DNA of 64,000 nt from an uncultured bacterium (lineage in GTDB: Bacteria > Margulisbacteria > WOR-1 > JAKLHX01), in the NCBI GenBank assembly GCA_964633925.1, contig CAZWKB010000003.1:4598-68597 (forward strand), in the 5' to 3' direction. This document shows positions 17,201-46,856 of the stretch, one piece after another; the stretch's first letter is position 1, and each line of letters begins with the position of its first letter. Both the position numbers and the translations under genes were made by a program. The notes below the pieces were generated by a model. The model did not search any database. It saw only the letters and a program-made list of their open reading frames with translations, and was not told the origin of the DNA.

Positions 17201-20200
17201 AACGGTGTGAAAGTATCAGGTGTCATTAAACCACCTCAGTGCAAAGTACCAATAGAAATTACACCAAGTGAAGGTGCTGTTGGTTATAGAATTTATGTAA
17301 CAGAAGAGGCTACGCCTTGGAGTCAGTTACAAAACACAGTTGGTAGAGATTGGTTCTTCTTAGAATCTTCATTCTATTATGTAATGAAAATGAATTATCC
17401 TATTTGGGGAGATAATTGCTTATTAGACGAAATCACTACAGAAGAGCTTAGAGAAATGGGATATGTTTATTATGATGATGGGCATATTGCAAACACTCAG
17501 CAGGGAAAACCACCAACTTCAAATACTGCTTTAGTATATATGCTGAACGATGGGGTTTTATATTTTGATGACTTATTTAAAGACTGGGTATCAAGATATG
17601 ATTATACAAAGCTAAGCATTTTCAAAAGCGTTGATACTACGAAGAAAGAAATGAATGGCGGTATTTATCTGCCAAACAAAAAAATGTTTTATATGTCGGC
17701 AGGAACAAAACTGTTTTATCATGATGAATATCAATTAGCTGAAGTATATCAAATTGGTAATTCAGAACTTGGTGATGTAAAAGGCTGGTGTAATGATAGT
17801 GATGAAGCCTATTATGTAACAGACCAGGGTAAAATAGTTAAGCTGTCTGATGGTTCTGTAATAAGTATTGCAGGTACAGTCTTTACAAATATCTTAGGAA
17901 TTGTAAAAGAAGATAATGGATTTGCAATATTAAGAGGTAATTCTATAACAAAAATAAATATGACTGGAGCTGTGACTAGCCAGTTTAATATTCCTTCTGG
18001 AATTGCTGGTTCTTTAATAGGTTTTTCTAAGGTATTTGATAAATATGTAGTATTTAATGATACTACTAAAAAACTAATATTCTTTGATAACCTTGCAATA
18101 CGTAGTCAAATAACTCCTACTGCCGTACCAAAGTTTTTCAACGTTGTAGGTACTACACTATTTATTTATATAGCACATGAAGAAGACGAACTACCTCACT
18201 CAATGCTGCTATATGATTTGATATGCGAAAAGTACTATGGAGAGATGAATCCAGTAAAGATATTCGACTCAGAACCACAATTTCCAGATGCTGACAGACA
18301 ATTAATTTTATGGGAAAGCGACCCTAACCTATATCCGAATATAGTCCCAAATGGAGACTTCAGATGTAGTTTATTAGGAGACCAAGTATATCCAGCTTAC
18401 ACTGAAATATTCCCTTCACCACCGGCTAACGTACCTTGGTCTGTCGAAAGAGATACTGTTTTAGATGTTGAAAAAAATATAATACATTTTAAGAATGGTG
18501 GAAACACACAGGCAAGACTTTATTATTCTCGCATAGGTATAAAAGGTGGTATGCAATACCAAGTTAATCTCACCGCTAAAGCTCTCGCTTCTGGTGGTTA
18601 TGTAAATATTACATTTGGTGTAAGAAACAAGCATGATAAAGAGCGTTGGGGAATAAATAATCATGGAATTTCAATAGGCACTGAATATAAAACAATAAGC
18701 TTTAAAATCCAAATACAGGAAGAAGCCCTGTCAGTCAACGTAGATTTGAGTTTTGGTGCAGGCATTGAATATAAGGTATCGGCATTCGAAATTATACCGC
18801 TAGACCCAGTTCTAGAGATTCCAGAGTTTCTTGAAAATGGGGATATGAGTATAATAGACCAGGGTGCGAATTATCCTTCGGGCTTCAAAATGTCAAACAT
18901 GCCAAACGAAACAGGATTGGCAAATGTGACTTCATCAATGGTTTTAGATTCTACCAATGGCAATGCATGGAGAATAGTTGATACAAATACAGCTAAAGAA
19001 AAATGGTATATTGACCTACCTATTATGAAAATCACTGCAGGCGACCAATTGAGATTGAAATTTAAGTATAAATGCAGTAGTACAACAGCAGACATGCTTG
19101 TAAGAGTAATAATGTGTTTTGAAGATGGAGCTCCAATACAGAGTCTTAATGATTTTACTGTAAAAGCTTCAGATACAAACGAGCATGAATATGTATTACC
19201 TACGTCTCCATTCATGGAATACTGTACTTATGACCCAGTTCAATATCCAGCCTTTGCAGGAAAACCTTATCCTAAACTGATGGTTCGTATTCATCCGGCT
19301 GCTGGTGCTACAAGCGAATTTAGAATGTTTGCTCCAGAATTATTCGTTTCAGGTAATTCGTTACAGAGAGCAACAAATCCTGAATTTGCAGATGGAATTT
19401 CAGCATGGTATACTACGATGCCAACTCCTGTTGGAAATACGGCAATAACTGCAGAAACAAAAGATGGTGTAAAATGCGCCCACTTTGTACATGCGGGCAA
19501 TGGCACTGCACAGCTTTGCCAAGAATTTGAAATACCAAAAACTAAAAACCCAATTGAAGTTGCAATAACGCTCAAAGGTACATTAACGAGTACGCTTGCA
19601 GATGCTGCCGCTTTAAGATTTAACGATGTATTCTTCTCTAGTCCGAATGGTCAATTCAAAGATAATAGCAATGCAGATTGGCCGTTTGAAAGGATTGCAA
19701 TATATCTAGAAGCGCTTAGCGAAGCAGCTTTCCCAAAAGGTAGTTTAAACTACACTGATTGGACTACATTAAAATTTACTGTTAATCCAAAAGTTGTTGA
19801 TAATGTTACAGACTATATATTCAAATGCTCGTTGAAATGTACTATATCTTCAAACTGGGGATGCACGGCAGCAGACCTTTATATAAGAAGTATCACTTGT
19901 ACTGAAATTTCAAGTGAAGTAGTTGAGGACCCTGATGATATTGAAATAGTTTGTCAAGATACTTTTACGGTTAGTCAGGGATATATACCAATTACGCTTA
20001 AACTTAAAAAAGGTGACGAAAATGTAGCAATAGGAGCACAAACAATTCAATTGACTTCCAATGACCCAGCAGGAGAGATCGAAATTAGCAGCACTAATGT
20101 TTTAGGATATGCAAGGGCTTTGTTTATTCCTAAGGTGTTTGCTGGTATAGTAAAACTAACTGCGACATATGGAAGCGTAACTGCTACAAAAGAAATAGAA

Positions 20201-21571
20201 GTAATGCCTCTGATAACACAGTTTAAGTCATTCAGAGAGATTGTTGGTTTTGATGATTTATTTTCTGATAAACTATATCTTGAAGTTATTTATAAGAAAA
20301 GATTCAAGGACTTCAGGCATGAAGGTGACCAAGTACAAGGATGGACAGTATTTAGGTCTCCTGAGTTTAACAAAGAACAGACAATGGACACTCCAATGAG
20401 TATTTCAACTTTAGATTCTGGATATTTAAGTAGAATGCAAGAACTATTTGATACGTTCCCATATTACTATTGCAATTTTTCTGAATATTTCGACTATGTT
20501 GCAGATAAGAACGAAATGTATGCATCACCGGTAGAGCGTGCACAAGCTTATATTTTCAGAAACAGAAAATGGTGGTATTCTTTAAGCCTTGAGGGTTATA
20601 AATCTCCATTCGGAGCTCCTGACTATAGAAGGTTGTACAATTGGAGGGAAAAGGAAATGTTCCAATGGTATATGGACAGAATAATGTTCATAATGAAACC
20701 GTATGTAGATGGGATTTATTTGGATGACTTTTGGGGAGAAGAATATAAGACATCTGCAGGATTTGACTTCAGCTTTAAGAAAACACCATTGCTCAACTAT
20801 TTAAGCTTTATGGATAGACAATATGCACAGGCAAGGACGCTTAAATATCTTGGGTTTAAATGTAGACTAAAAGGTAAATATCTATGTTGTAACTATGGTG
20901 CTTCAGTTGATGCAAACTATAGTTCAGATGGTTCTCCCAAAAGGCTTACAAACGGAGATATCGACCCTAATTCAGGCAAATACTCACCGGCAGATATGGC
21001 ATTGATTTATCCGTTTGATGGATTCTTAATTGAAAACTTTACAGGTTGGGATGACCAAGTTGGAATGACAGCAGAAAGTTCAATCAACCAGCTTACAAAC
21101 AACATGTGGATGGTTCGTGGTATTATAGAATTGATGAGATATTGTAGGGACCACGGCAAGTTTATTGTTTGTTTGGCAAGAGGAACCCCACAAAACTGGG
21201 ATATAAGGATGATGAACTTCGCATTGTTCTTAATGGGATGGTTCCCAAATGCTTATATGACAATGCATCAGTTAACAGAGTACGGAGAAGATGAAGACGA
21301 AGCAGTAAGGTATGGAGAAGTATTCCATATTCAGATGCTTCCTGAAATGAGGATTCGCTTAGGCGAACCGAAATCAGACTATGTATGGAATAACTACCTA
21401 TTCAGCAGAGAATTTGATAACTGCATCGCACTGGCAAACGCTTCTACATCTTCTGGTAGAAGCTATACATTGCCAGAAGGAATATGGTATGACCTTAAAG
21501 GGAATGCTTACACTGGGACAGTAACAGTTCCAAAAGCATCTGCATTAGTAGTTATGAAAGTAAGACCATAA
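14285..21571 (+). CDS. Giant (2,428 aa) tail fibre / putative polysaccharide depolymerase
   Basis: Single uninterrupted ORF. The N-terminal (VLVYYGW...GIFLDEFGYDY) and C-terminal (YVDGIYLDDFWGEEY) regions resemble GH114/GHL-type TIM-barrel hydrolases. At least four N(G/P)(D/E)F-initiated CBM4/9-like modules and one Ig-like module lie between them. Confidence 0.6.
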   Translation: MLKRVLVYYGWLSAINGLFDVEAAAEKFSNYDIVIIGDGLEHPAHPDYANTTAIIAATKTINVVTKFFGYIPVGQLSPSKLDISTMQDYADEWVVTGADGIFLDEFGYDYHVSRSLQNQIVSYCKNLNLPVIVNAWSQEHVFGKEAYVDGDFHANDSGEIPVLNQDDFILFESLFTYNEEGTQKFATGNRIFEAVKYLQFNREEYSNKTYYDQYKVRPLAVDTIDKSLEDKNRLFAIGYYSSYMLNFVGYGASSPNYGASDPDINHYLPSPNPKLEPPSWHIVDVTPYQSSGRQFRTAYTNDFGDVIIKLIWLEGNPVWDITKGEHVVFLNDIEKNTFSDDATDLYPQFIDDPLFMKSTEGNISVVGSEFQTGYGAPTDSHRFIRPGGGGLAPDDWWYCGGPEWPGYAIAIVNVNTIAERNALAASIGVKQVKVQENDTLYKYDGSNWVSIVGNDPKENYQGFLDAGGQWIDPTDQDKAQLASLTDNPIYYNITPYKLVKLDATDPKVRQGTPPSDMPQNYGLTQCFELNQTNKHYMKISFFYKTVGFSVTPQVNFQGYSAAILDNNWSETNSGGTYLFMDTASTSSPWREASQIITAEYPFLYGFVHMLVRGASTGQLFITGLKLEQLQIVKDDSVVSDNLLINGDFAVAISDINVKGNVLGFEMENATKATYSTPLPVVNFLATVDVKPEGYFEQRGIVTNSSLNMYTLKVPYRSLLGCQGKIIVELRDRFKNILSLKEIQLDVIESTVWKEQLVEFIAGYPVESVDIRIENTGTTGNLTIGKLALTAADLGITDGDINAVNGTEEEITISQMARADHTRVVGLPEPMGISKVKADFFKKFTEEQLMHEDDPYEGIVYITDGNIKDISPKLCRRLSTVKVYETVPFTQGDFESNAYDVGSDTDSVMVKYNGIMMLPYLKPPHLSHIHTWKETGANFSAQHMGRRYYCVTAYNAQGETTKSNIIVGKAEGVNGVKVSGVIKPPQCKVPIEITPSEGAVGYRIYVTEEATPWSQLQNTVGRDWFFLESSFYYVMKMNYPIWGDNCLLDEITTEELREMGYVYYDDGHIANTQQGKPPTSNTALVYMLNDGVLYFDDLFKDWVSRYDYTKLSIFKSVDTTKKEMNGGIYLPNKKMFYMSAGTKLFYHDEYQLAEVYQIGNSELGDVKGWCNDSDEAYYVTDQGKIVKLSDGSVISIAGTVFTNILGIVKEDNGFAILRGNSITKINMTGAVTSQFNIPSGIAGSLIGFSKVFDKYVVFNDTTKKLIFFDNLAIRSQITPTAVPKFFNVVGTTLFIYIAHEEDELPHSMLLYDLICEKYYGEMNPVKIFDSEPQFPDADRQLILWESDPNLYPNIVPNGDFRCSLLGDQVYPAYTEIFPSPPANVPWSVERDTVLDVEKNIIHFKNGGNTQARLYYSRIGIKGGMQYQVNLTAKALASGGYVNITFGVRNKHDKERWGINNHGISIGTEYKTISFKIQIQEEALSVNVDLSFGAGIEYKVSAFEIIPLDPVLEIPEFLENGDMSIIDQGANYPSGFKMSNMPNETGLANVTSSMVLDSTNGNAWRIVDTNTAKEKWYIDLPIMKITAGDQLRLKFKYKCSSTTADMLVRVIMCFEDGAPIQSLNDFTVKASDTNEHEYVLPTSPFMEYCTYDPVQYPAFAGKPYPKLMVRIHPAAGATSEFRMFAPELFVSGNSLQRATNPEFADGISAWYTTMPTPVGNTAITAETKDGVKCAHFVHAGNGTAQLCQEFEIPKTKNPIEVAITLKGTLTSTLADAAALRFNDVFFSSPNGQFKDNSNADWPFERIAIYLEALSEAAFPKGSLNYTDWTTLKFTVNPKVVDNVTDYIFKCSLKCTISSNWGCTAADLYIRSITCTEISSEVVEDPDDIEIVCQDTFTVSQGYIPITLKLKKGDENVAIGAQTIQLTSNDPAGEIEISSTNVLGYARALFIPKVFAGIVKLTATYGSVTATKEIEVMPLITQFKSFREIVGFDDLFSDKLYLEVIYKKRFKDFRHEGDQVQGWTVFRSPEFNKEQTMDTPMSISTLDSGYLSRMQELFDTFPYYYCNFSEYFDYVADKNEMYASPVERAQAYIFRNRKWWYSLSLEGYKSPFGAPDYRRLYNWREKEMFQWYMDRIMFIMKPYVDGIYLDDFWGEEYKTSAGFDFSFKKTPLLNYLSFMDRQYAQARTLKYLGFKCRLKGKYLCCNYGASVDANYSSDGSPKRLTNGDIDPNSGKYSPADMALIYPFDGFLIENFTGWDDQVGMTAESSINQLTNNMWMVRGIIELMRYCRDHGKFIVCLARGTPQNWDIRMMNFALFLMGWFPNAYMTMHQLTEYGEDEDEAVRYGEVFHIQMLPEMRIRLGEPKSDYVWNNYLFSREFDNCIALANASTSSGRSYTLPEGIWYDLKGNAYTGTVTVPKASALVVMKVRP

Positions 21572-35662: not shown

Positions 35663-35692
35663 TATATTATAAAGCAGTAGGAGGTTTTGAGG

Positions 35693-36604
35693 TTGTCAAA
35701 GTATATTATTGGTGGAGGGATTGCCGGTTTAATTGCGGCTTATTATAATAAAGAATATAAGATTATTTCTCAAGATATTGGCGGTCAAATGGTTTCTAAA
35801 AATGTTGGCCCAAGAATATTAGAAGTAAATCAATATTCTAAAGAATTTCTTAATGATTTAGGCATAAAAGAATGCCCTATCAAAATCGCTAAAATAGGTT
35901 ATAAAGTAGAAGGAAAGCTTGTAAATTCAATATCTGAAGACTTAAGAAAAAAATATTATATTAAGTCAAGATGTTTACATACGGCAGCTATTGTACCAAG
36001 TTCAATAATGTCAGACGGTAAGAGTTTTATTGAATATTTCGATATTGATTGGGACAAAGTTGTTAGTATTTTAGTAAATAGTATAGAAAAACCTATAAAC
36101 GGTAAAGTTAGTTTAATCGATACTACAAATCATATCTTAAAAGTAGAATCTGATGGTTCTGAAATTTTAAGATATGATAGTTTGGTATCGACAATTCCTG
36201 CACCGGTATTCTTTAAAATTTCAAACTTGCAACCAGAACAAGAACTTAAGTATGTTCAAAAGGTTTTTGTAGTAATGAATGAAGACCAAATTGACTTTGG
36301 GGAGTTTGATTATATATATTTCCCAGACTCAGCTCACGGATATCATAGGATATCTAAAACAGGAAATGGAAAGGCTTCAATAGAATATACGACAAATAAG
36401 AGTTATAAGTCTATAATTCAAACTTGGTCAATGTATTCTCGCGAACATCACGTTATTCCTGTTGGTCAGATTCAGAGCGGTAAGGTTCAAGAAATAAATG
36501 ATATTTTGTTTCTTGGAAGATATGCAAGTTGGGACCATGATATAAAAACAGATGATATTGTCAAAATTTGTAGAGATGGGGGTTTGATTAATGCAAAACG
36601 ATAA
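35693..36604 (+). CDS. FAD/NAD(P)-binding Rossmann flavoprotein (UDP-galactopyranose mutase / amine-oxidase-like)
   Basis: IIGGGIAGLIAAYY is GxGxxG at the N-terminus. C-terminal FLGRYASWDHD resembles the UGM GRxxxYxYxxMD motif. TTG 35693 lies 8 nt after AGGAGG. Confidence 0.55.
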   Translation: MSKYIIGGGIAGLIAAYYNKEYKIISQDIGGQMVSKNVGPRILEVNQYSKEFLNDLGIKECPIKIAKIGYKVEGKLVNSISEDLRKKYYIKSRCLHTAAIVPSSIMSDGKSFIEYFDIDWDKVVSILVNSIEKPINGKVSLIDTTNHILKVESDGSEILRYDSLVSTIPAPVFFKISNLQPEQELKYVQKVFVVMNEDQIDFGEFDYIYFPDSAHGYHRISKTGNGKASIEYTTNKSYKSIIQTWSMYSREHHVIPVGQIQSGKVQEINDILFLGRYASWDHDIKTDDIVKICRDGGLINAKR

Positions 36605-37547
36605 AGACAAGCTTAAGCATTTGTGGGACGTTCAGTTAGAATTTAACAGGAAGTTTTACAGGGCAAAGATAGGTAAAGAAATGGAAGACATGACTATGGA
36701 AGAAAAAGTATTTTGGTCTAAAAACCAATTGCTTTCTATAGTAAAAGAATCAATGGAAGTGCTGGATGAAATTCCGAATTGGAAAGAGCATCGCAATATT
36801 GAAACAGAATTTATTCCTTCGAATTTATATGAAGAAATAATCGATGTCAATAAATTCTCAGTAGGACTTGCACAAATCTGGGGTATGACCTTTGAAGATT
36901 ATTATGAGGAATATCTTAGAAAAAGCTGGGTTGTTGACCAGAGATGGACACAAGAACATGATTTAAAACTTATTGACAAAGACGAAAAGATTGCAGCAGT
37001 TGACATTGATGGCGTCTTAGGAGAATATCCATTTTGGTTCTTGGAGTTTGTTCGGGCGAGAGTTGGACAGAAATTTAATTCATTAGAAGAAGCAAAGGCA
37101 GGGCTTGGTACGATTTATTATGAAAGACTTAAGTCTGACTATCGCCAGTCAGGATGGAAATCTTCTATGCCTGCTTGCAAACATGCTTCAGAATTTACTA
37201 ATTTACTTCATCAAAAAGGATATAAAGTGGTAATTCTTACAGCACGCCCTTATAAGGAATATTACACTATTTATCCGGACACATTAAAGTTCCTTAAGGA
37301 AAACAATATATATTTCGACGCTATTATTTGGGATAAAGAGAAACATCTTAAAATCATAAAAGAATTTCCTAAAATGCTTTTTATGGTAGAAGATTGTATT
37401 GAGATTGCGATCGATGTTGCAAAAGAAGGTTATGTGGTTTTTCTTAAAGATTGTTATGACAATACTAATCGTATTCCATCTGAATTAAGTAATTTGATTA
37501 TACCGTTTATAGACCTTCTAGATATAGTCGAAAAGTGGAACATATAA
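36591..37547 (+). CDS. Fusion: all-alpha NTP pyrophosphatase (dimeric dUTPase/MazG-like) + HAD 5'(3')-deoxyribonucleotidase-like domain
   Basis: N-terminal half: LWDVQLEFNRKF...ESMEVLDEIPNWKEHR...EEIIDVNKF...EYLRKSWVVDQRW. C-terminal half: AAVDIDGVLGEY (DxDxV), VVILTARP and FMVEDC. Confidence 0.6.
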   Translation: MQNDKDKLKHLWDVQLEFNRKFYRAKIGKEMEDMTMEEKVFWSKNQLLSIVKESMEVLDEIPNWKEHRNIETEFIPSNLYEEIIDVNKFSVGLAQIWGMTFEDYYEEYLRKSWVVDQRWTQEHDLKLIDKDEKIAAVDIDGVLGEYPFWFLEFVRARVGQKFNSLEEAKAGLGTIYYERLKSDYRQSGWKSSMPACKHASEFTNLLHQKGYKVVILTARPYKEYYTIYPDTLKFLKENNIYFDAIIWDKEKHLKIIKEFPKMLFMVEDCIEIAIDVAKEGYVVFLKDCYDNTNRIPSELSNLIIPFIDLLDIVEKWNI

Positions 37548-37590: not shown

Positions 37591-37624
37591 AAGGTGTATA
37601 TTTAAGGTGAAGGGGGTTTTTAAA

Positions 37625-38053
37625 ATGGCAATTTTGCTTTTCGTCGGCTGCGATAAGACTGGCAAAAGTACACTTATGAAAAATATCTTAAAAAGAACAA
37701 ACCAACATATTTGCGTGGACAGGTTTACTCCATGTCAGTATGTTTATGGGAGGCTTCATAATAAAAATTCAACTCCAAGTTTGGAAAGTTTTAGAAATTT
37801 GGAAAGTTTTTTAACAAAATCTCCTATTCCAGTTATGTTTGTTCATGTTTTTGCCGATACTGAAGATATTAAGAAAAGGTTTATAGAACATGATGAAAAA
37901 GATATTGATTTACAACAGATTGATTATGTAAAGCAACAATATAGGCAGTATTTAGAAAATACTTCTTTAAAAGTATTAAATATAAACACTTCTAAATATT
38001 GTATAGATGAGTGTATGGAACAAATTCTGTTAACAGCTGAACGCTTATTATAA
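37625..38053 (+). CDS. Small P-loop (deoxy)nucleotide kinase-like protein
   Basis: MAILLFVGCDKTGKST has Walker A at the extreme N-terminus, as in dNMP/thymidylate kinases. 142 aa. ATG 37625 follows GAAGGGGG. Confidence 0.5.
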   Translation: MAILLFVGCDKTGKSTLMKNILKRTNQHICVDRFTPCQYVYGRLHNKNSTPSLESFRNLESFLTKSPIPVMFVHVFADTEDIKKRFIEHDEKDIDLQQIDYVKQQYRQYLENTSLKVLNINTSKYCIDECMEQILLTAERLL

Positions 38054-38066: not shown

Positions 38067-39104
38067 ATGAAAGCAAAATTGGGAATGGGTGGTTACTTTG
38101 TAAATCCTGTTGACCATCCTGAAAGAATAATCAGATATGCATATGATATGCTAGATATTAGGATTTTTGATACTTCTCCAGCATATGGTGCTAGTGAAGA
38201 ATTTTTTGGGCATGCGCTTAGAGACTATCAGAGGGAGTCCTATTTATTGTCTACTAAGACAAAGGCAGCTACAGTCAAAGAACTTCATTTGTCTTTGGTA
38301 AATAGTTTAGGTAAACTCAATACTGACTATGTAGACTTTTATTTTGGCCATTCGTTTATAGATGATGACGAAACCTTGGAAAAATCTATGAACGTTTTAC
38401 ATGAGATGAAAAATATTAAGGACAAAGGGTTTATAAAAAGTGTAGGTGTTTCTGGGCATTCAGTTACTGCTGCAATGACTGCAATAGAAAGTGGATTTGT
38501 AGATATAATAATGGTACCATTTTCTTTAATGCATAGGGAGTTTGAATCTATTATTCAATGTGCAAAAGAAAAAGGAATTAGTGTAGTCACTATGAAAAAC
38601 TTCGCAAGCGGAATATTGCTTGGAGGGCCTTCTGATAATGAATTTAAACGCACTGTGACATTGCAAAAAGTTATGAATTTTTCTGCATACAATGGTGACT
38701 TAATCATTCCGGCTTATCGTTCTATAGAACAATTACAACAAATAGCAAATGCATATTGCTTTGCTGAAAAACTATCTGAAAAAGAAATTATGATTTTAGA
38801 AAATCAGATAGTTGATTTTTTTGGTTCTGACTTTTGTAGGTTTTGCAACGAATGCAGGCCATGCCAGAAATATGGTTGGGCAATGTCGCAGCCCGGTATA
38901 TTAAAATGCGCAATATATCAAGAAAAGTTTGGACTTGACATGAAAGACAGTTATGAAAAATATAAATATAATGTAAATGACTGTAAAGACTGTGACAGCC
39001 AATGTTCTTCTAATTGCCCGTTTGGAATAAATATTAAAGAGAAAATGCAACAGGCACATGATTTATTTTCAGGAGTTGATAAAGATGAAACGATATCTAA
39101 ATAA
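38067..39104 (+). CDS. Aldo/keto reductase with C-terminal Fe-S (ferredoxin-like) cysteine clusters
   Basis: AKR-like FDTSPAYGASEEFFGHAL...DYVDFYFGHS. The C-terminus carries CRFCNECRPC and CKDCDSQCSSNCP. Confidence 0.6.
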   Translation: MKAKLGMGGYFVNPVDHPERIIRYAYDMLDIRIFDTSPAYGASEEFFGHALRDYQRESYLLSTKTKAATVKELHLSLVNSLGKLNTDYVDFYFGHSFIDDDETLEKSMNVLHEMKNIKDKGFIKSVGVSGHSVTAAMTAIESGFVDIIMVPFSLMHREFESIIQCAKEKGISVVTMKNFASGILLGGPSDNEFKRTVTLQKVMNFSAYNGDLIIPAYRSIEQLQQIANAYCFAEKLSEKEIMILENQIVDFFGSDFCRFCNECRPCQKYGWAMSQPGILKCAIYQEKFGLDMKDSYEKYKYNVNDCKDCDSQCSSNCPFGINIKEKMQQAHDLFSGVDKDETISK

Positions 39105-39576
39105 GGAAGACAGATATAATACTATTATTTTAGGGACTCTCGTTGACTTCATGAATAATTTGATTATCAAGTTTGAAGAACTTAAAAGACCAAAGTCTGT
39201 AATTAAGTTTATGAAAATGTCAAGGTCATTCTGCCTAAAAGTTATAGATTGGTACTTTCAAAATCTTGATGACAAATATAAGCATGATGTAATAAATGAA
39301 ATGAAAAAACTTGAAATAATAGTAAAACAAAAGACTGAAGCCATTAGGGAATTTAAAGAAATGGAAAAAATAGAATCAAATATGGTTGTTGTTACAGAAG
39401 ATTTTTATGAAATTTGTGAATATGCTTTGCTTGTCTGTATGAAATGTAAGGCAGGCAAAGAACAAATTGCAGAATGCAAGTTAAAGGAAGCTATGATAAG
39501 AAATAACGTTCCAGTTATGCATTTGGAAATTTCTGATGATGGTTGCCCTTATAAATATAATCAGGAGGTGCTTTAA
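39085..39576 (+). CDS. Hypothetical helical protein with C-terminal Cys motif
   Basis: ATG 39085 follows AGGAG and overlaps the AKR 3' end by 20 nt. Carries CMKCKAGKEQIAEC...GCPY. Confidence 0.4.
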   Translation: MKRYLNKEDRYNTIILGTLVDFMNNLIIKFEELKRPKSVIKFMKMSRSFCLKVIDWYFQNLDDKYKHDVINEMKKLEIIVKQKTEAIREFKEMEKIESNMVVVTEDFYEICEYALLVCMKCKAGKEQIAECKLKEAMIRNNVPVMHLEISDDGCPYKYNQEVL

Positions 39577-39577
39577 C

Positions 39578-40669
39578 ATGGATGTAGTTAGAGAAAAGAC
39601 AGTTAAGAAAATATTGCCGTATGTAAAGCTTATTGAAAAAGAAGCTTTGAAAGGCCCGATATCGTTGCATATTTTAGTTACTGACTACTGCGTCAACCGG
39701 TGTAATATGTGCGGTCATTGGAAAACTAAAAATCGCAATAATTTGGACATTTCTATTTTAAAAGAAATATGGGATGACTGTAATGAAAATGAAGTAGAGT
39801 CAATCTGCTTAACTGGCGGTGACCCAATTCTCCATCCAGATTTTGATAAAATTCTGGATATGAAAAGAAATTTTGACCTTGGAATTATTTGCACAGGTAA
39901 TTTTAAAAAGAATTTCGATTTTTCGAAATTGGCAAGCTTAAGGTGGATACGCTTTTCTATTGATTCTCTAGACCCTGCTAGATACACTTTTATTAGGGGC
40001 CTCGATAATTTATATGGAACGATTTTGCCTAACGTTAGAAAGGCTCAAGAGCATCAAAAAGAGGTTGGAATAAATTTCACAATACAGAAAAGTAATTGCA
40101 TGGACATTCGCGACATTATTAAGTTTTCTGCAGAAAATAATATCTATAGACTTATGATTTATCCTATGCACGGTGATGGAAACCTCTGTATTGGTAGAGA
40201 TGAAATTGAAATAATTTTAGAACAACTAAACGATATGATAAGTAAGAACTATCACAAAAGAATACCCGAAAACAATTTGCAGTTTCTTTATGACAGCCTT
40301 ATACAGGCATATTCACAAGATGAAGATGTTAGAAAAGTGACATTCGGTAATTATCCATGCATCATAAATAAAATTCATTTAGCTATAGGTTCTGATGGAA
40401 ATGTATTTCCGTGCGAGATGATTGCTGATGATACAGATGAATATGGAGAAAGAACATTTTGGGAATTGCAAAAGTTCAGCGATTGCTTAATGGAAAGACA
40501 AACTTCATTTACAGGCCTTGGCAATGTTAATTCTGAAAGCATTATAAAAATATGGAAAAGAAATTTCAACAAAACATTCTGTTCCGGAAAATGTGATAAT
40601 TGCTTTAGTAGATATCAGCCAATAAACCAAGCATACTATGAAAATCGTAATAAAAAGGTATTTATATAA
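39578..40669 (+). CDS. Radical SAM enzyme with SPASM/twitch-type C-terminal cysteine clusters
   Basis: CVNRCNMCGHW is CxxxCxxC, with LTGGDPILHPDF following. C-terminal YPCIINKIHLAIGSDGNVFPCE and CSGKCDNCFSRY. ATG 39578 follows AGGAGGTG. Confidence 0.7.
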   Translation: MDVVREKTVKKILPYVKLIEKEALKGPISLHILVTDYCVNRCNMCGHWKTKNRNNLDISILKEIWDDCNENEVESICLTGGDPILHPDFDKILDMKRNFDLGIICTGNFKKNFDFSKLASLRWIRFSIDSLDPARYTFIRGLDNLYGTILPNVRKAQEHQKEVGINFTIQKSNCMDIRDIIKFSAENNIYRLMIYPMHGDGNLCIGRDEIEIILEQLNDMISKNYHKRIPENNLQFLYDSLIQAYSQDEDVRKVTFGNYPCIINKIHLAIGSDGNVFPCEMIADDTDEYGERTFWELQKFSDCLMERQTSFTGLGNVNSESIIKIWKRNFNKTFCSGKCDNCFSRYQPINQAYYENRNKKVFI

Positions 40670-40749: not shown

Positions 40750-41805
40750 ATGAGTAACGAAACTACGCGTATCAATGAACTTAGGAGAGTTATGGGGACA
40801 CTTCCAGACCAAGACCCAAAACTTGAAACAAAATTTTTAAAAGGTGTTGAAGGAATTTCGGTAAAACTTATCGAATCTGTCATTGCAAACCCTTATAAAC
40901 CAATGTATATTCTGGCTACTACATGCTGGGGTAAAGAGGTAGATAAATGGGAAATGACATCGCCTGAAAACAGATTTGAAGTTGTTAAGGCAGCTTTAAG
41001 AGGCCAAGCGTTACCATTGGCATTGGAAGTACCTCAATTTGCTTTTGCAGTAGAAGGGCCATCACGTGCGGCATTCGATCAGATTGCAAGAGCAAGACTT
41101 GGTGTTGTATTTTCTGCAAGAGGTATGAGGGATAACAATTGGAAAGATGCTTCAATAAGGATTCCAACTGCACTTTGGCCAACAGAAGATGAAATTCAAA
41201 TTTTCGATGAATGGCGCAGTAATATCATCAAAACACCTACAGCAGAGCAGCAAAAAGCAATTGACAAATGCAATATTTTTTGGAATATCAAGCGTGTTAT
41301 GTGCGATGTTAAACAGACATATGCAGATATTGTTGACGTTGGTAAAGGTTCTTGGCAGGCAGCTCGCTGTGTACTACCTCTTTATGTAGTTTATGGTTTT
41401 TCGTTTTCGATTAACTTTATGGCATTGAGGAATATGTGCAGTACCAGAATGAAATTCTGCGAAATGGAAGATACAGTTGCTATTGCATGGCAAACAGCTA
41501 GGGCTGTGTCGGAAGCATATCCGTTGCTTGGTTCATTTTTAAGACCTGGTTGTGATTGGGCAGGCAAATGCCAGTACCACAAATCTTATACACTGTCTGA
41601 AATGTTTGGCTGTTTGTTTAAGGAGTGTGGAAGGAATTCATGTCCCGACAGCAATGACTATGCGGAGTTTAATGAAACATGCACAAACTATAAGGACCTT
41701 GAGGAACAGCTCGGTATTCATATTACAAGGCCCGATGAATGGCCTAATTTCGAAACTTTTGATAGCCTTCCCGATATTGAAAAAGCAAGGTTTATGGAAG
41801 ACTAA
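40750..41805 (+). CDS. Divergent ThyX-fold (flavin-dependent thymidylate synthase-like) protein with a Cys-rich C-terminal extension
   Basis: FAFAVEGPSRAAFDQIARARLGVVFSARGMR aligns to the ThyX RHRxxSxxxxSxRY motif but with RHR changed to RAR. AARCVLPLYVVYGFSFSINFMALRNMCSTR aligns to the ThyX ARxVLPL...N.R.L.NF..LR helix. 351 aa. Confidence 0.6.
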   Translation: MSNETTRINELRRVMGTLPDQDPKLETKFLKGVEGISVKLIESVIANPYKPMYILATTCWGKEVDKWEMTSPENRFEVVKAALRGQALPLALEVPQFAFAVEGPSRAAFDQIARARLGVVFSARGMRDNNWKDASIRIPTALWPTEDEIQIFDEWRSNIIKTPTAEQQKAIDKCNIFWNIKRVMCDVKQTYADIVDVGKGSWQAARCVLPLYVVYGFSFSINFMALRNMCSTRMKFCEMEDTVAIAWQTARAVSEAYPLLGSFLRPGCDWAGKCQYHKSYTLSEMFGCLFKECGRNSCPDSNDYAEFNETCTNYKDLEEQLGIHITRPDEWPNFETFDSLPDIEKARFMED

Positions 41806-41817
41806 ATTTTAATAAGG

Positions 41818-41852
41818 TGGGCCAATGAGCTTTGCGCCATTGGCCCATTTTA
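41818..41852 (+). terminator. Rho-independent terminator
   Basis: 10-bp stem TGGGCCAATG/CATTGGCCCA with a 10-nt loop, then TTTTA. Confidence 0.65.
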
Positions 41853-41870
41853 TAACAAGGAGAGACTAAT

Positions 41871-42404
41871 ATGCATGGATTAGGTTTAAGGCAAGTGATT
41901 GAAAATCTTCAATTGTTTGTAGTTGAAAAAGGAAAGCCTGTCTTAGTTGACGGACAAGGTACTATTGAAGTCCTCAATCATAGTTTTAATATTTCTTATA
42001 ACAGTCAAATTGATATTGCTGATATTAAGAAAAATATGGTTGAATATTATAATAGTCACAAGATAGACTTGAAAAGCATCGAGGAACTGGAAAAGGAAGA
42101 ATACAGTAAAATCGAAAATGAACTTTTATCAAAGTTTTCATTATTTGATGAAGATTTGCATTCCAGAAGAGTTTTATGGTCGGATGACTGTTGTATCAGT
42201 TTAATTCACTATCTCGTTCGGGATTCAAAAATTTACTGCTATGTACACCTAAGAAGCTCTGAAGTTGAACAGAAATTATTTTCTGATATGTACTTAGTGC
42301 ATAAAATAACAAGAGCTTTACAAGACAAATTAAATATAGATGTTGCAATGATTTTTGTAAATGGGCATAGTATGCATAAGCTTGTATTTAAAGTTAATGA
42401 GTAG
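41871..42404 (+). CDS. Truncated ThyA-fold enzyme (thymidylate synthase / dCMP hydroxymethylase superfamily), 177 aa
   Basis: Ungapped match to the E. coli ThyA core: Cys108 = C146, exactly 20 residues before Arg128-Ser129 = R166-S167; Asp139 = N177; His169 = H207 (GHSMHKL against GGDTHLY). SRR = R126/R127. Confidence 0.65.
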   Translation: MHGLGLRQVIENLQLFVVEKGKPVLVDGQGTIEVLNHSFNISYNSQIDIADIKKNMVEYYNSHKIDLKSIEELEKEEYSKIENELLSKFSLFDEDLHSRRVLWSDDCCISLIHYLVRDSKIYCYVHLRSSEVEQKLFSDMYLVHKITRALQDKLNIDVAMIFVNGHSMHKLVFKVNE

Positions 42405-42423: not shown

Positions 42424-42465
42424 GGCCCTGTCGTATATCTTGACTGCATGGAATGCGACAGGGCC
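42424..42465 (+). promoter_or_regulatory. GC-rich 10-bp perfect hairpin between the TS-like gene and the polymerase gene
   Basis: GGCCCTGTCG (42424-33) pairs with CGACAGGGCC (42456-65); 22-nt loop; no T-run. Confidence 0.5.
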
Positions 42466-42486
42466 TGCATTAAAGAGGTGAATAAA

Positions 42487-45400
42487 TTGTCAGTAAAAAA
42501 GATTAAAAAGGTTGTAAAACAGCCAGAACCTCCAGTTAAGAAAGTTGTTAAAAAGGTTAAGAAGACATCAGATATTGACAAACAGGTCGAAAAAGCTAAA
42601 AAAGCAGTCGAAAAGATTATACCTATTATGGACAAAAAATATTCTGGTATGATTAGTGCTAGAAAAGTCCCTATGCCTACTATCGACACAATACCATTTA
42701 TTCCGGTACATAATCATACAGATTATTCAACAAAAGATTCTGTAATGTCTATTGATGAATATATTAATAGAGTTGCTGAATTAGGTCTCCCAGGTGCAAC
42801 AGTAACAGAGCATGGAAACATGTCAAGTGCTTTGAAATTTTATAAAGCTTGTAAGGCTTTTAAAGATTCAGACCGTCCAGATTATTCAATCAAACCAATT
42901 CTTGGTAATGAGATTTATACTGATGACAATATCGAATTGAAAATTGAAGCTTCACTTGAAAGGCAAAAAAGGAAAAAAGATGATGAGGCTATAGATAGTG
43001 GTTATTTGGATGACGATTATGGCCATTTAGTCCTGCTTTCTCCAACAAAGGAAGCGTATCATGAATTGCTAATGACTAATGCAAAAGGATTTAGGGACGG
43101 GTTTTATAAACGCCCCAGATTAACTCACGAATATATATTGAACGAAGCTTCTAAGCATCAAATTGCAACGTCTGCTTGCTTGGCATCGAAGTTTAATTAT
43201 TATATAAGGTGTGGTCAGGATAAAGCCGCTAAACAGCTTCTTAGTGATTATAGAGATGCTTTTGGTGATAGGTTTTATGTGGAACTCCATTTTAACGAAC
43301 TTGAAATACAGAGATATTGCACCAATAAAATTCTTGAATTTGCAAAGGAATTAGGAATACCTTGGATTGTTGGTCTTGATGCACATTATGCAAGAAAAGA
43401 ACACGTGCAGTATCATGATTATTTTAAGGATATGTATTACGGCGGTTCTATTGCAGAACCTTCAAAATTTAGATATAGTACTAGAGAATTATATCTAAAA
43501 GATTCTAATGAAATAATACATTCTGCAATGAAATGGGATTATGGAATTGACAGAAAAGATATTATTTCAGGTTTACATAAGACAATGGAAATTTATGATA
43601 GAACTGATTTCGAAATGGAGACTGGCGTTCTTAAATTCCCAAGGTTTAGTATGGAACCAAACTTTGACGCTAATGCAGAATTAAAAAGGAAATGTATTAG
43701 AGGTTATAACAAAAGAAAACGGCAAGGATTACTTCCTGCACCGGGATTTACTGAACAAGATTATAAAGACCGTTTTAATAAGGAATTTCCAGTAATAGTC
43801 GGAAAAGGATATGCAGATTACTTCTTAATTGTTTCAGAATTTACAGACTATTGCGTTGAAACTGACTTATTCAAAGGTCCAGGTAGAGGTAGTGCTGCAG
43901 GTGCTCTTATATCATGGTTGTTAGAAATAACAAAGGTTGACCCAATAAGATATGGATTATTCTTTGAAAGGTTTTTGAACGAAGAACGTGCCGACCCGCC
44001 AGATATTGACCTTGACTTTGACAGCGAAAGAAGATATGAAATTGAGGAGCTGTTAATAAAGAAAAATGGTCCTGAAAAAGTTGCTCATATAATGTCGTTT
44101 GGTACTTGGGGTTGTAAAAGTGTAATTGGAGAATTATCTAAGGTATTTGGCTTACCGTGGGGAATTATAGATAAATTCAAAAAATTGTGTAATGATGACC
44201 AGACTATTCAGCAAAATTTGGATAGAATAATGGGTGTATCTTGTATTAAGCGAATGCGAAAAGGCGAAGAAGTTGAAATTCGCGAAACTCCAGCACCAGA
44301 TATTAAAGAGTTTGTAGAAAATAATACAGAATTTTTTGAGGCTTGTAAGTTCTATGAAGGTAAAGTAAGGAACTATTCAATGCATGCTTCAGGCGTTGTT
44401 GTAACTCCTGGAAAAATGGAAGAATTAGCACCTATTAATAGAGCATCAGGACAAATCGTTACAGGCTTACAAGAAGGTGGAGATATTCGTGAAATATCAG
44501 ATATAGGGTTACTTAAGTTTGATATTTTGGGATTAAATAACTGTACTATTCTTAATCGAGCATTACAATCTGTTAAAAGAAGAAAAGGAATAAATATTGA
44601 CATTGATGCAATAGACCTTGAAGACGACAAACTGTTAGAACGATTTAGGCAAGGTCATACAGCTGGAATATTTCAGTTCGAATCATCAGGTATTACAAAG
44701 TTTATAAAAGACATTCAGCCGCAACGATTTGAAGATTTAATTATTGTTAATGCTGCATATCGCCCCGGTACATTAAGAGCTGGCGGTGTTGATATGATTA
44801 TCGAAAATAGGCATTCAGATGATATTGACTATATGCATCCAGAGATTGAGGCAGTGTTAGGGCCGACATATAATGTTTTGGTTTATCAAGAACAGCAAAT
44901 GGCTTTAATGCATAGAGTTGGCGGTTTTACAATGGTTGAAGCTGATAAATCAAGAAAAACAATAAAGTATATAAACAAAGCGTCTACTGCATCTCCTGAA
45001 AATCTTAAAAAATTCTATGATATGATTGAACATTTTAAAGAAGGTGCTCATCAAAAAACTGGATTGGCATATGAAAAACTACAAAAGCTTGTTGATGCTA
45101 TGGCATCCGCAGCTGATTATTCTTTTAATAAATCTCACAGTTGTAGTTATGCTATAATAGCTATGCAAAATATGTTCTTGAAACATTACTATCCAGCAGA
45201 CTATGCAGCTGCATTCCTAAGCAGGACAAAAAATGAGGAAAAGAAAGGTAAAGCAGGGCATAAAACTGGTGAAAACAAAATAGAAAAATACGTTAAAATG
45301 GCAATTTCAGAAATGAAATTAGAGATTGGTACGCCCGACATCTCCATATCCGGAATCGATTGGGTACCGAAAGATGATAAAACGATTATTCCTTCTTTAA

Positions 45401-46086
45401 CGTTTATTAAAGGTGTTGGAGAGGCTGCAGTTCCTGAAATTGTCGCACACCAACCATACACCTCGCTAGAGTCATTCTTTGGAGCTGACATGCAGTGGAG
45501 GTTAGTTAATAAGAGGGTTGTGGAGGCTTTAATCCAGACAGGGTCTTTCGATTCTCTATATCAGCATAGGAAAACGTTATTGGAAGCATATACAAGGTGG
45601 AATAATGGCGGTAAAAAGAATTTTTCAAAAATATTGGCAAAAGTTGAAGAAGAAATGGGACAAGAGGATTTGACTTTTGATGAAAAAATGGCTTTGGAAA
45701 AAGATTTGTTTGGGTTTTATTTTAGTGCTAACCCTTTAGATAAATATGGCGATGTTATCCAGAAAAAAGGTATTAAAGAAGTTAGCGAACTTGCCAAAGG
45801 TAAGAAATGGAAACGAGGAACACTTTATGGCATAGTTACTAAAGCTTATCCATATAAAATTTCTAAAGGTACAATGTGTTTTGTAGATATTCAAGGCAAG
45901 GATGAAACAAAGGCAAGTATCACTGTATGGCCAGAGATGTATACTCCATATAAAGATTTGCTTAAAGAAGGAAATATAGTTGCGATTAAAGTTAAACCTG
46001 GTAAGAGTAAAAATGATGAACCTTGTTTTTATATAGATGAGGACGATGAAAGAAAAAAGGTTATTTTGATGGACGATTTGATATAA
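42487..46086 (+). CDS. dnaE: DNA polymerase III alpha subunit (DnaE-type, PHP domain) with Lys-rich N-terminal extension
   Basis: PHP motif FIPVHNHTDYS...TEHGNM, a palm/fingers core (GPGRGSAAGALISW, DIDLDF, YSMHASGVV) and a C-terminal OB region. TTG 42487 lies 6 nt after AAGAGGTG. The ORF is open from 42361. Confidence 0.8.
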   Translation: MSVKKIKKVVKQPEPPVKKVVKKVKKTSDIDKQVEKAKKAVEKIIPIMDKKYSGMISARKVPMPTIDTIPFIPVHNHTDYSTKDSVMSIDEYINRVAELGLPGATVTEHGNMSSALKFYKACKAFKDSDRPDYSIKPILGNEIYTDDNIELKIEASLERQKRKKDDEAIDSGYLDDDYGHLVLLSPTKEAYHELLMTNAKGFRDGFYKRPRLTHEYILNEASKHQIATSACLASKFNYYIRCGQDKAAKQLLSDYRDAFGDRFYVELHFNELEIQRYCTNKILEFAKELGIPWIVGLDAHYARKEHVQYHDYFKDMYYGGSIAEPSKFRYSTRELYLKDSNEIIHSAMKWDYGIDRKDIISGLHKTMEIYDRTDFEMETGVLKFPRFSMEPNFDANAELKRKCIRGYNKRKRQGLLPAPGFTEQDYKDRFNKEFPVIVGKGYADYFLIVSEFTDYCVETDLFKGPGRGSAAGALISWLLEITKVDPIRYGLFFERFLNEERADPPDIDLDFDSERRYEIEELLIKKNGPEKVAHIMSFGTWGCKSVIGELSKVFGLPWGIIDKFKKLCNDDQTIQQNLDRIMGVSCIKRMRKGEEVEIRETPAPDIKEFVENNTEFFEACKFYEGKVRNYSMHASGVVVTPGKMEELAPINRASGQIVTGLQEGGDIREISDIGLLKFDILGLNNCTILNRALQSVKRRKGINIDIDAIDLEDDKLLERFRQGHTAGIFQFESSGITKFIKDIQPQRFEDLIIVNAAYRPGTLRAGGVDMIIENRHSDDIDYMHPEIEAVLGPTYNVLVYQEQQMALMHRVGGFTMVEADKSRKTIKYINKASTASPENLKKFYDMIEHFKEGAHQKTGLAYEKLQKLVDAMASAADYSFNKSHSCSYAIIAMQNMFLKHYYPADYAAAFLSRTKNEEKKGKAGHKTGENKIEKYVKMAISEMKLEIGTPDISISGIDWVPKDDKTIIPSLTFIKGVGEAAVPEIVAHQPYTSLESFFGADMQWRLVNKRVVEALIQTGSFDSLYQHRKTLLEAYTRWNNGGKKNFSKILAKVEEEMGQEDLTFDEKMALEKDLFGFYFSANPLDKYGDVIQKKGIKEVSELAKGKKWKRGTLYGIVTKAYPYKISKGTMCFVDIQGKDETKASITVWPEMYTPYKDLLKEGNIVAIKVKPGKSKNDEPCFYIDEDDERKKVILMDDLI

Positions 46087-46154: not shown

Positions 46155-46856
46155 ATGCAGATTATTAAACCTGGCTTCGCAATAGAAGAAGGCATTGATG
46201 GTTTAGCTATCCTTAGAAAAATCGAAAAAGCAGGTAGAACTTGCTATAAATCTGAGGATAAAATAACTGATGAGTCGGCAAAAAAGTTCGTTGCTTCTTT
46301 AATTAAAAGCGGCCACGAGGCAATGATTGAACATCATTTTGTAACTGTAACTTTTACTGTAGATAGAGGAGTTACACATGAAATTGTTCGGCACCGTATT
46401 GCTTCATATGCACAAGAATCTACAAGGTATTGCAATTATGGTAAAGAAAAAAGCGGCTCAGAAATTACCGTAATTGATATTCGTGAAATTATGGAAGCAG
46501 AAGTTGGTAAGACCTATAAGCATCCAGTTAATAATGAACAGATTCTTGTAACTGCAGAACTTGTTAATTACTGGATTTCTGAATGGTTAGGTGCTATCGA
46601 AGACTCTGAAAGGCACTACATATCGCTTGTAAATTCTGGTTGTCCTGCACAATTGGCACGTTCGGTGCTATTACATTCTGTCAAGTCTGATATCGTTGTT
46701 ACAATGGACTTAAGAGAGTGGAGGCATTTCTTTAGGCTTCGCGCATTAGGTACTACTGGAAAACCTCATCCACAGATGGTGCAAGTAGCTAAACCTTTGT
46801 TGGACGAAATGAAAGTCCAAATCCCGGTTGTCTTTGATGACCTTTCATATGCTTAA
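46155..46856 (+). CDS. thyX: Flavin-dependent thymidylate synthase ThyX (canonical)
   Basis: GVTHEIVRHRIASYAQESTRY contains the full RHRxxSxxxxSxRY signature. 233 aa. Confidence 0.9.
   Translation: MQIIKPGFAIEEGIDGLAILRKIEKAGRTCYKSEDKITDESAKKFVASLIKSGHEAMIEHHFVTVTFTVDRGVTHEIVRHRIASYAQESTRYCNYGKEKSGSEITVIDIREIMEAEVGKTYKHPVNNEQILVTAELVNYWISEWLGAIEDSERHYISLVNSGCPAQLARSVLLHSVKSDIVVTMDLREWRHFFRLRALGTTGKPHPQMVQVAKPLLDEMKVQIPVVFDDLSYA

Follow-up and report, generated by a model that had tools for sequence, protein, structure and literature searches.

A compact thymidylate synthase-fold protein

The DNA analysed here (hereafter the window) is a 64,000-nucleotide stretch of contig CAZWKB010000003.1, assembled from an uncultured bacterium, and the region of interest encodes phage replication and nucleotide-metabolism proteins at 32-37% GC. 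An open reading frame (ORF) at 41871-42404, running from ATG to TAG on the forward strand, encodes a 177-residue protein that we call the mini-TS, since it has the fold of thymidylate synthase (TS). The first-pass annotation, made from the letters of the window, had described this ORF at exactly these positions. The strand opposite the ORF is packed with stop codons. The gene lies between those of a long ThyX-like protein and a DnaE-type DNA polymerase (Table 1).

The annotation had claimed an ungapped alignment with the catalytic core of Escherichia coli ThyA (reference sequence identical to PDB 1aob). In agreement, no gap is needed across 62-64 residues, Cys108-His169 of the mini-TS against Cys146-His207 of ThyA, and the proposed correspondences (C108 with C146, R128-S129 with R166-S167, D139 with N177, and H169 with H207) are exact. 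The string quoted there starts one residue early, at C107, but its residue numbering is right. The ungapped 64-residue stretch contains 12 identities and has a BLOSUM62 score of 42, while the best of 2000 shuffled controls scores 30 (z = 5.4), suggesting a pairwise similarity that by itself is above chance, yet modest.

Library searches with the single sequence match PHROG_160 'thymidylate synthase' (E = 3.6e-4) and, in the PDB, HY126 AfhB (0.013, the best match) and T4 dCMP hydroxymethylase (dCH; 0.037). The match to the NCBIfam model of methanogen-type TS, TIGR03283 (E = 0.0027, 17.2 bits), is below the cut-off of 174.55. Pfam PF00303 gives no match to the mini-TS at E<=1, and the relatives P0020 and P0021 score 14-16 bits on it, below the gathering score of 24.3. 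Profiles built from the family are more sensitive. An alignment of 14 close homologues of 175-228 aa (A1) retrieves T4 dCH from the PDB at 6e-5. With an alignment of 47 diverse full-length family members (A2), the E values fall to 2.7e-14 for T4 dCH, which aligns over the full length, and to 5.6e-14 for AfhB; E. coli ThyA (1.6e-9) and MilA (7e-8) are matched as well. Compared with a small TS alignment in hhalign, A2 gives a probability of 99.3% (E = 2.3e-20).

The AlphaFold2 model of the mini-TS (predicted local distance difference test score (pLDDT) 92.8, predicted TM-score 0.89) has six strands and four helices and keeps the dimer-forming beta-sheet. When the model is compared with the PDB, Foldseek returns 394 matches at E<1e-3. 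The 50 listed are all TS-family chains except one design built on E. coli ThyA; they have prob 1.0 and query TM-scores of 0.52-0.68, and the top ones include T4 dCH, HY126 AfhB, and ThyA. In BFVD, the structural matches are phage TS proteins together with a few viral proteins of 150-175 aa that are uncharacterised. By profile and structure evidence, membership of the TS superfamily is secure at the fold level, as the annotation had proposed.

The mini-TS is 87 residues shorter than E. coli ThyA (177 vs 264), close to the 'about 90' estimated before. The description as smaller than any TS needs tempering: the protein is short, but the TIGR03283 model has 201 positions, and some phage TS homologues have about 210-230 aa. 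Therefore, the size is extreme but does not break with other TS proteins. Nor is the scaffold one of a kind. The protein is a compact TS-fold protein and not a fragment, and it belongs to a large family, often kinase-fused, in a conserved module. Searching 1.84 billion representative proteins with the family profile yields at least 243 clusters (50% identity) at E<1e-3. Most have 150-220 aa; others, of about 300 aa, have the mini-TS domain at the C-terminus and, at the N-terminus, a P-loop domain that is thymidylate-kinase-like and contains the motif EGxDxxGKT. A fragment or pseudogene of thyA is ruled out by the length kept in 14 close and more than 200 distant homologues, and also by the confident compact model, the kept synteny, and the good ribosome-binding site.

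Family members occur in marine, gut, and anaerobic-digester phage contigs, and one close homologue sits on a contig binned as Sedimentibacter. When 50,697 phage records are searched by tblastn, the mini-TS, a marine mini-TS, a kinase fusion, and the ThyX-like protein find nothing; only the outlier P0117 leads from the family to ordinary TS genes of phages, for example SPO1 gp29. Patterns of the close family find no relative in one genome per GTDB species. As a query for loci, A1 retrieves a single viral contig, and A2 is too diverse to serve. In the searchable literature, we found no description of the family or its module.

Active-site residues kept and lost

The mini-TS keeps the nucleophile Cys108, the Arg128/Ser129 clamp, Arg99/Arg100 of the SRR motif, Asp139, and Ser167/His169. 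Among the 163 family sequences retrieved, on which our conservation counts rest, Arg128 is present in all, Ser129 in 162, Cys108 and Arg117 in 160 each, and Arg99 in 158. Cys108 is also present in 14/14 close homologues, and His169 in all 114 ungapped family sequences. The position of Arg100 is Arg, Gln, or Lys. The invariant columns of A2 are R99, C108, R117, R128, S129, D139, and H169. The catalytic Cys, Arg-Ser clamp, and His named in the annotation are all retained, as is the partner-subunit Arg; in TS, the arginines of the SRR motif (R126'/R127' in E. coli) come from the other subunit. The fourth phosphate ligand (E. coli R21, T4 K28) has no conserved counterpart in the family, and the invariant Arg117 may replace it. 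As judged from these residues, the machinery for nucleotide binding and covalent activation appears conserved.

The sequences that carry these near-invariant residues share a mere 21-30% identity, indicating catalysis and not binding alone. This bears on the idea of a non-catalytic TS-fold protein. Such a protein could bind nucleotides as a regulatory or adaptor subunit of the kinase or polymerase, or it could form heterodimers with host ThyA and act as a dominant-negative inhibitor. The retained dimer-forming sheet and the lost folate site (see below) would fit such a role, and a shutdown of dTMP supply is known from thymidine-replacing phages (PMC12697855, PMC8989533). However, the near-absolute conservation of Cys, Asp139, and His169 at such divergence is hard to explain without catalysis, and the phage makes its own dTMP with a canonical ThyX and a thymidylate kinase (Tmk). 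A non-catalytic role is highly improbable.

Asp139 occupies the position of E. coli N177. It lies exactly 11 residues after Arg128 and is present in 158/163 sequences. Asp at this position associates with cytosine modification (PMC8670742), is needed for dCMP use in T4 dCH (PMC6400193), and is linked to cytosine specificity also in synthases of 5-hydroxy-dCMP (5hodCMP; PMC13326640). The annotation had taken Asp139 as a cytosine-type mark, and both its conservation and the cited experiments bear this out. In accordance, the best PDB matches by profile, T4 dCH and HY126 AfhB, are phage enzymes that act on dCMP. A dUMP-directed TS supplying dTMP is ruled out by the Asp, the canonical ThyX (PF02511, 1.9e-38), and Tmk.

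The folate-binding elements, which comprise I79/W80/W83, F176, and the C-terminal tail in E. coli ThyA and Tyr56, Ile81, Trp82, Val85, Phe174, Arg177, Tyr218, and Arg220 in T4 dCH, are deleted or replaced. The segment of E. coli I79/W80/W83 is deleted in the profile and hhalign alignments, and E. coli Tyr209 has no conserved counterpart in the family. The mini-TS ends 8 residues past His169, without the C-terminal tail, and the chain ends within about 10 residues of the His169 equivalent in nearly all members. This agrees with the annotation, which had noted the loss of most of the folate-binding helix region and of the C-terminal tail. In T4 dCH, the para-aminobenzoate and pterin moieties of folate are contacted by Trp82, Phe174, Arg177, Tyr218, and Arg220 (PMC6400193). 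In the direct alignment, Phe174, Arg177, and Tyr218 become Gln134, Phe137, and Leu171, respectively, and Arg220 is absent. The folate-activating Glu (E. coli E58, T4 E60) has been described as conserved in all TS, CMP hydroxymethylase, and dCH enzymes (PMC6400193). Hhalign places Met56 opposite T4 E60, and, whichever register is taken, acidic residues make up at most 52% of the family at any position of helix 44-65. Canonical folate binding by the mini-TS appears very doubtful. With this Glu and most of the folate contacts gone, canonically bound methylenetetrahydrofolate (CH2-THF) is probably not the source of the C5 group.

Two further features invite comparison with T4 dCH. Tyr78, which never varies in the close clade and recurs in 107/144 relatives, is paired by hhalign with T4 Tyr96 (E. 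coli Y94); the alignment is weak there, and Tyr78 lies in a helix and not in the usual loop. Glu74 is one helical turn away. Asp105 and Asp106 are located at -3 and -2 from Cys108; in the close clade, position 105 is Asp or Asn and position 106 is invariant Asp. Whether either is equivalent to T4 Asp145 (the position of E. coli L143), where a polar or acidic residue lets water into the active site of pyrimidine hydroxymethylases, hangs on the placing of a 16-residue gap.

The annotation implied a CH2-THF-dependent methylase or hydroxymethylase, but the E58 equivalent and the folate contacts are absent. An explicit version would be a miniature self-sufficient dCMP methylase or hydroxymethylase of the T4 gp42 or XP12 type, which binds CH2-THF in a reduced pocket and uses Glu74, Glu77, or Glu33 in place of E. 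coli E58. T4 dCH is among the top matches in sequence and structure, the E. coli D169 position carries an acid (Glu131 here), Asp106 and Asp105 recall Ser144/Asp145 of T4 dCH, and Tyr78 aligns with the catalytic Tyr. In addition, T4 dCH itself works without a C-terminal tail (PMC6400193), and the host is probably an anaerobe, judging from the Sedimentibacter bin and a radical S-adenosylmethionine (SAM) gene, which favours O2-independent chemistry. However, the helix equivalent to that of E58 has no conserved acid, with Met56 opposite T4 E60, the segment of T4 Ile81/Trp82/Val85 is deleted, and Phe174, Arg177, Tyr218, and Arg220 are replaced or absent. Moreover, the E. coli D169 position varies freely, also among the ThyX-linked members, which is unexpected for a pterin ligand. 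On these grounds, a miniature dCH is rather unlikely.

In TS, E. coli D169 is the pterin ligand. The equivalent position is Glu131 in the window protein, Asp in 13/13 close homologues, and Asp, Asn, and Glu in 97, 52, and 8 of the 163 family sequences, respectively; the Asp and Asn forms share otherwise identical gene contexts. Asn at this position is diagnostic for 5hodCMP synthases, whose hydroxylation needs O2 (PMC13326640). The mini-TS could accordingly be compared with a flavin-dependent dCMP 5-hydroxylase like AfhB or RB69 gp48, which would make 5hodCMP with the ThyX-like or FAD-Rossmann protein of its neighbourhood as flavin reductase. AfhB (PDB 9iqu, 9iqc) is the best single-sequence PDB match and has the highest query TM-score (0.68), the marine members read RSQN like AfhB, and two flavoprotein homologues are co-encoded in the module. 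However, the clade lacks the diagnostic Asn (Glu131 in the window protein, Asp in all 13 close homologues), and the O2 requirement fits poorly with a phage that probably infects an anaerobe. In addition, Asp and Asn members occur in the same module, so the position may not discriminate function. A 5-hydroxylase is quite unlikely for the window protein.

A conserved module and a proposed pathway

The genes around the mini-TS gene are listed in Table 1. Directly upstream is the long ThyX-like gene. Its product matches Pfam Thy1 (1e-13), with the RHR motif reading RAR, and its AlphaFold model (pLDDT 90.9) matches ThyX in Foldseek (4e-9). The equivalents of the dUMP-binding Arg residues (R114, R116, R127, R206, and R233) are kept; the protein may belong to a parallel branch in which its substrate is a uracil nucleotide. 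Its C-terminal extension, conserved and rich in Cys (PGCD...CQYH...FGCLFKECGRN.C...FNE.C), hints at a site for a metal or an Fe-S cluster. The family has at least 209 clusters, and no members were found among the 50,697 records of cultured phages. The canonical ThyX of the window does not match the ThyX-like HMM; two ThyX-fold genes in one phage are unusual. Marine relatives have two adjacent ORFs in place of a single ThyX-like gene (L064, 10001-10825 and 10828-11529; also L034, L035, L052, L058, and L074). The first lacks the RxR motif, and the second has RxR and the Cys-rich tail; the two look like a heteromeric or duplicated pair.

Table 1 Features of the window discussed in the text
Feature	Position	Strand	Description
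Very large ORF	14285..21571	+	2428 aa; structural region
FAD/NAD(P)-Rossmann protein	35687..36604	+	305 aa; GGGIAG motif
NTP pyrophosphatase and nucleotidase	36591..37547	+	318 aa; dimeric-dUTPase-like N-terminal part, HAD/NT5C-like C-terminal part with DxDG
P-loop dNMP-kinase-like protein	37607..38053	+	148 aa
Insert	38067..40669	+	between the kinase-like and ThyX-like genes
Long ThyX-like protein	40750..41805	+	351 aa; ThyX fold; directly 5' of mini-TS
Inverted repeat	41807..41858	+	core GGGCCAATG/CATTGGCCC then ATTTTAT; between ThyX-like and mini-TS genes
Ribosome-binding region	41856..41870	+	Shine-Dalgarno-like AAGGAGA, 7 nt before the mini-TS ATG; read from sequence
Mini-TS gene	41871..42404	+	177 aa; TS fold; Cys108 nucleophile
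Inverted repeat	42424..42465	+	GGCCCTGTCG/CGACAGGGCC; just 3' of the mini-TS stop, before the likely DnaE start
DnaE-type DNA polymerase III alpha subunit	42486..46086	+	directly 3' of mini-TS; start probable
Canonical ThyX	46155-46856		PF02511 1.9e-38
Acb2/Tad1-domain protein	49247-49543	+	98 aa; Pfam 4e-22
YspA/SLOG-family protein	55829-56188	+	replication/repair region
Thymidylate kinase (Tmk)	57615-58232		
NUDIX hydrolase	58902-59327		
Zinc dCMP deaminase	61041-61529		
HIRAN-domain protein	63248-63673	+	replication/repair region

In the relative L026, a kinase-mini-TS fusion (12921-13817) has an N-terminal half that shares 43% identity with the kinase-like protein (E 8e-23), providing a Rosetta-stone link from the kinase to the mini-TS. 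In L011, a kinase-like gene is located directly upstream of the mini-TS gene. BLASTP detects no similarity between the kinase-like protein and another fusion, P0029. The identity of the 318-aa family is given by the Pfam profiles dUTPase_2 and NT5C, which match homologues; Pfam has no match for the window protein itself. The PF06941 family includes the dTMP phosphatase of PBS1 (PMC12697855). For the 305-aa FAD protein, a profile search of the PDB indicates distant similarity to the UDP-galactopyranose mutase/amine-oxidase family, and Pfam gives nothing useful for its family.

Both inverted repeats that flank the mini-TS gene are GC-rich with perfect cores of 9-10 bp, and a simple terminator scan calls neither. 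The upstream repeat could form a hairpin, e.g. a partial terminator or stability element. The DnaE gene probably starts at TTG 42486 rather than at ATG 42361 of the ORF list. ATG 42361, the start of the longest ORF, would overlap the mini-TS gene by 44 nt. TTG 42486 is preceded by AAGAGGTG, and the 81-nt spacer to the mini-TS gene then holds the hairpin.

The gene neighbourhood is conserved. In three close relatives with long contigs, genes for the 305-aa protein, a 317-aa protein, the kinase-like protein, an aldo-keto reductase, and a radical SAM protein keep this order and, after other genes, are followed by the ThyX-like, mini-TS, and DnaE genes. Three loci fetched through ThyX-like homologues (43-63% identity) all contain a mini-TS gene within 4 kb, kinase-fused in one of them, with PolA in place of DnaE. 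A scan of IMG/VR with the ThyX-like alignment yields 62 loci. Of the ThyX-like loci, 33 are non-redundant and at least 14 kb long; all 33 contain the 318-aa dUTPase/HAD family, 31 the 305-aa FAD family, and 29 a mini-TS, as raw counts uncorrected for co-occurrence in random contigs. The module genes always share one direction and lie close together, in varying order, and are accompanied by DnaE or PolA polymerases; DnaE homologues occur in 38 of the analysed loci, often between the mini-TS and ThyX-like genes.

Modified deoxynucleoside monophosphates (dNMPs) typically need their own kinase (PMC13326640, PMC8989533). The kinase fusions therefore suggest that the product of the mini-TS is a dNMP of this kind. 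Together, the kinase, the nucleoside triphosphate (NTP) pyrophosphatase/nucleotidase, and the dedicated polymerase resemble a pathway that replaces a canonical pyrimidine. The ordinary route to dTTP is already complete with the canonical ThyX, Tmk, NUDIX hydrolase, and dCMP deaminase of the window.

We propose, with slightly more confidence than doubt, that the mini-TS is a homodimeric, minimal TS-fold enzyme that carries out Cys-dependent modification of dCMP at C5 and so supplies a pool of modified dCTP. What the data show directly is the fold, the residue conservation, and the linkage of the genes. By residue homology, the phosphate would be held by Arg128/Ser129, Arg99/Arg100 of the partner subunit, and probably Arg117, and Asp139 would recognise cytosine and protonate N3. 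Cys108 would add to C6 and render C5 nucleophilic, as in T4 dCH (PMC6400193). Tyr78, possibly together with Glu74, could stand in for E. coli Tyr94. From the gene context, the C5-modified dCMP would be phosphorylated by the associated P-loop kinase and incorporated by the phage's own DnaE, while the dUTPase-like/HAD protein would adjust the competing canonical nucleotide pool. The ThyX-like and FAD-Rossmann proteins are candidates for supplying the C5 group or processing the product, and a coupled flavin-linked route through the ThyX-fold and FAD proteins is attractive.

Several points weigh against this proposal. The Glu said to be conserved in TS and both hydroxymethylases (PMC6400193) is absent, so one-carbon transfer may not occur, and E. 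coli R21/T4 K28 and Tyr209 are without conserved counterparts. The canonical ThyX, Tmk, and zinc dCMP deaminase make part of the neighbourhood ordinary nucleotide metabolism. For every family member, the activity is argued from homology and context. In an independent sample of 42 marine loci with kinase-mini-TS fusions, a ThyX-like gene lies within 10 kb in 13, indicating that the association is frequent but not obligatory at this distance, and the co-occurrence could stem in part from the shared ancestry of one phage lineage's replication module. Finally, five relatives carry a second, larger TS homologue of 220-254 aa directly 5' of the ThyX-like gene (L011, 4454-5188; L013, 5302-5973; L015, 9324-9986; L016, 9033-9788; L033, 9222-9983). 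It matches PF00303 in L011 and L013, its N177 position is Asp, the chain stops directly behind the GSxH motif, and an E58 equivalent seems to be missing. The mini-TS therefore need not be the primary C5 transferase, and in these phages it may act downstream, on something other than plain dCMP.

Such a downstream role could be general. The mini-TS would then act on an already modified nucleotide, or perform cofactor-free Cys-C6 chemistry, after another TS homologue or the ThyX-like enzyme; examples are the conversion of 5-hydroxymethyl or 5-phosphomethyl pyrimidines via an exocyclic methylene, C5 exchange, and deamination by covalent catalysis. Several phages with the module indeed pair the larger TS beside the ThyX-like gene with a mini-TS 2-3 kb off. 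Loss of the folate site is expected if no external one-carbon donor is needed, and the module contains a kinase-like protein and a HAD phosphatase. However, the clade of the window protein has no second TS homologue within the available 64 kb, a canonical zinc dCMP deaminase makes a second deaminase unneeded, and such a role is without precedent among characterised TS-fold enzymes. We consider it improbable.

A bolder form of the proposed dCMP modification, which we hold tentatively and think less probable than not by a wide berth, makes the mini-TS a folate-independent 'nucleotide activator'. The Cys-C6 chemistry would be combined with the ThyX-like protein, perhaps also the FAD-Rossmann protein, in a two-component system that installs a novel C5 substituent on dCMP. 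The module of five to six genes, consisting of NTP pyrophosphatase/nucleotidase, kinase, mini-TS, ThyX-like protein, FAD protein, and DnaE, would be an unrecognised, environmentally widespread pathway of pyrimidine replacement in phage DNA, also in phages of anaerobes.

TS-fold enzymes are the entry to nearly all known pre-replicative pyrimidine modifications of phages, namely 5-methylcytosine, 5-hydroxymethylcytosine, 5-hydroxymethyluracil, and, recently, 5-hydroxycytosine. Published surveys detect them through the N177D signature together with Pfam PF00303 (PMC8670742; bioRxiv 10.1101/2024.12.05.627091). Since the mini-TS family scores below the threshold of this Pfam model, such surveys miss it. 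The family has kept the machinery of covalent catalysis, shed the folate site, occurs fused to dNMP kinases, and is accompanied by a divergent ThyX homologue. If the mini-TS makes modified dCMP, it would be the smallest working TS scaffold and probably another cofactor switch in the TS fold, and a large set of uncultured phages would likely have non-canonical DNA, which bears on evasion of restriction and CRISPR, on sequencing bias in viromes, and on enzyme discovery.

The remaining genes of the region belong largely to replication and repair. Upstream genes include those of DnaB helicase, primase, and UvrD helicase, and downstream genes include those of RecA, an SbcCD-like nuclease, RuvC, and a FEN-type exonuclease. 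The insert that separates the kinase-like gene from the ThyX-like gene is restricted to the close clade and encodes an aldo-keto reductase with a Cys-rich, Fer4-like C-terminal tail, a DUF5651 protein whose gene overlaps both neighbours, and a radical SAM/SPASM protein. The insert might provide a further (hyper)modification step or be unrelated. The 98-aa protein with an Acb2/Tad1 hairpin domain is a homologue of the sponges that counter cyclic-nucleotide defence signalling, and the relative L006 carries a Tad2-like gene. Other genes recorded in Table 1 are a very large ORF and those of YspA/SLOG-family and HIRAN-domain proteins.

Comparison with characterised TS-fold enzymes

The closest characterised relative by profile is T4 dCH (gp42; PDB 1b49, 6a9a, and 6l18), which has the same fold (Foldseek E 7e-8, prob 1.0). 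The two proteins have in common the motifs TIE..G.SF, SRR, C...QYLIRD..., and RS.D, and S.H near the end. They are also alike in Asp at the N177 position (T4 D179) and in having no long C-terminal tail, and may be alike in the polar or acidic residues before the Cys. However, T4 dCH has 246 residues. Compared with it, the mini-TS is without about 26 residues between helix B and SRR, which contain the folate gate Ile81/Trp82/Val85, without 16 residues between SRR and Cys, and without the last 27 or so residues. In addition, Met56 replaces Glu60, and the mini-TS lies outside PF00303.

HY126 AfhB and RB69 gp48 make 5hodCMP from dCMP with flavin instead of folate on the same fold, indicating that the fold can change cofactor (PMC13326640). 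AfhB and the mini-TS both have Asp at the N177 position, and the RSQN motif of AfhB recurs in some mini-TS relatives. However, AfhB has 234 residues, its diagnostic Asn is Glu or Asp in the mini-TS clade, and its O2-dependent reaction is unlikely in the phage of an anaerobe. Moreover, none of the sources consulted reports a ThyX-like partner of AfhB.

The ThyA proteins of E. coli and L. casei (PF00303) represent the canonical enzyme. The mini-TS keeps the equivalents of their C146-H207 core with R166-S167, R126-R127, and H207, but has Asp in place of Asn177 and lacks E58, W80/W83, Y209, R21, and the C-terminal tail. Methanogen-type TS is closer in outline: it also ends a few residues past the His207 equivalent, and mini-TS residues 107-169 match positions 130-192 of TIGR03283. 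These archaeal proteins are presumed to act on dUMP with a different one-carbon carrier. MilA, a CMP hydroxymethylase (PDB 5b6d and 5jnh), likewise combines the TS fold with Asp at the N177 position and acts on a cytosine nucleotide (PMC5175136). Unlike the mini-TS, it has 325 residues, is folate-dependent and specific for ribonucleotides, and belongs to an antibiotic pathway rather than to phage DNA modification.

By their defining features, namely the Pfam threshold, E58, and the folate-binding elements, the mini-TS would fall outside the folate-dependent TS/dCH family. With Glu at the D169 position, it also appears to fall outside the flavin-dependent 5hodCMP synthases, for which Asn is diagnostic.

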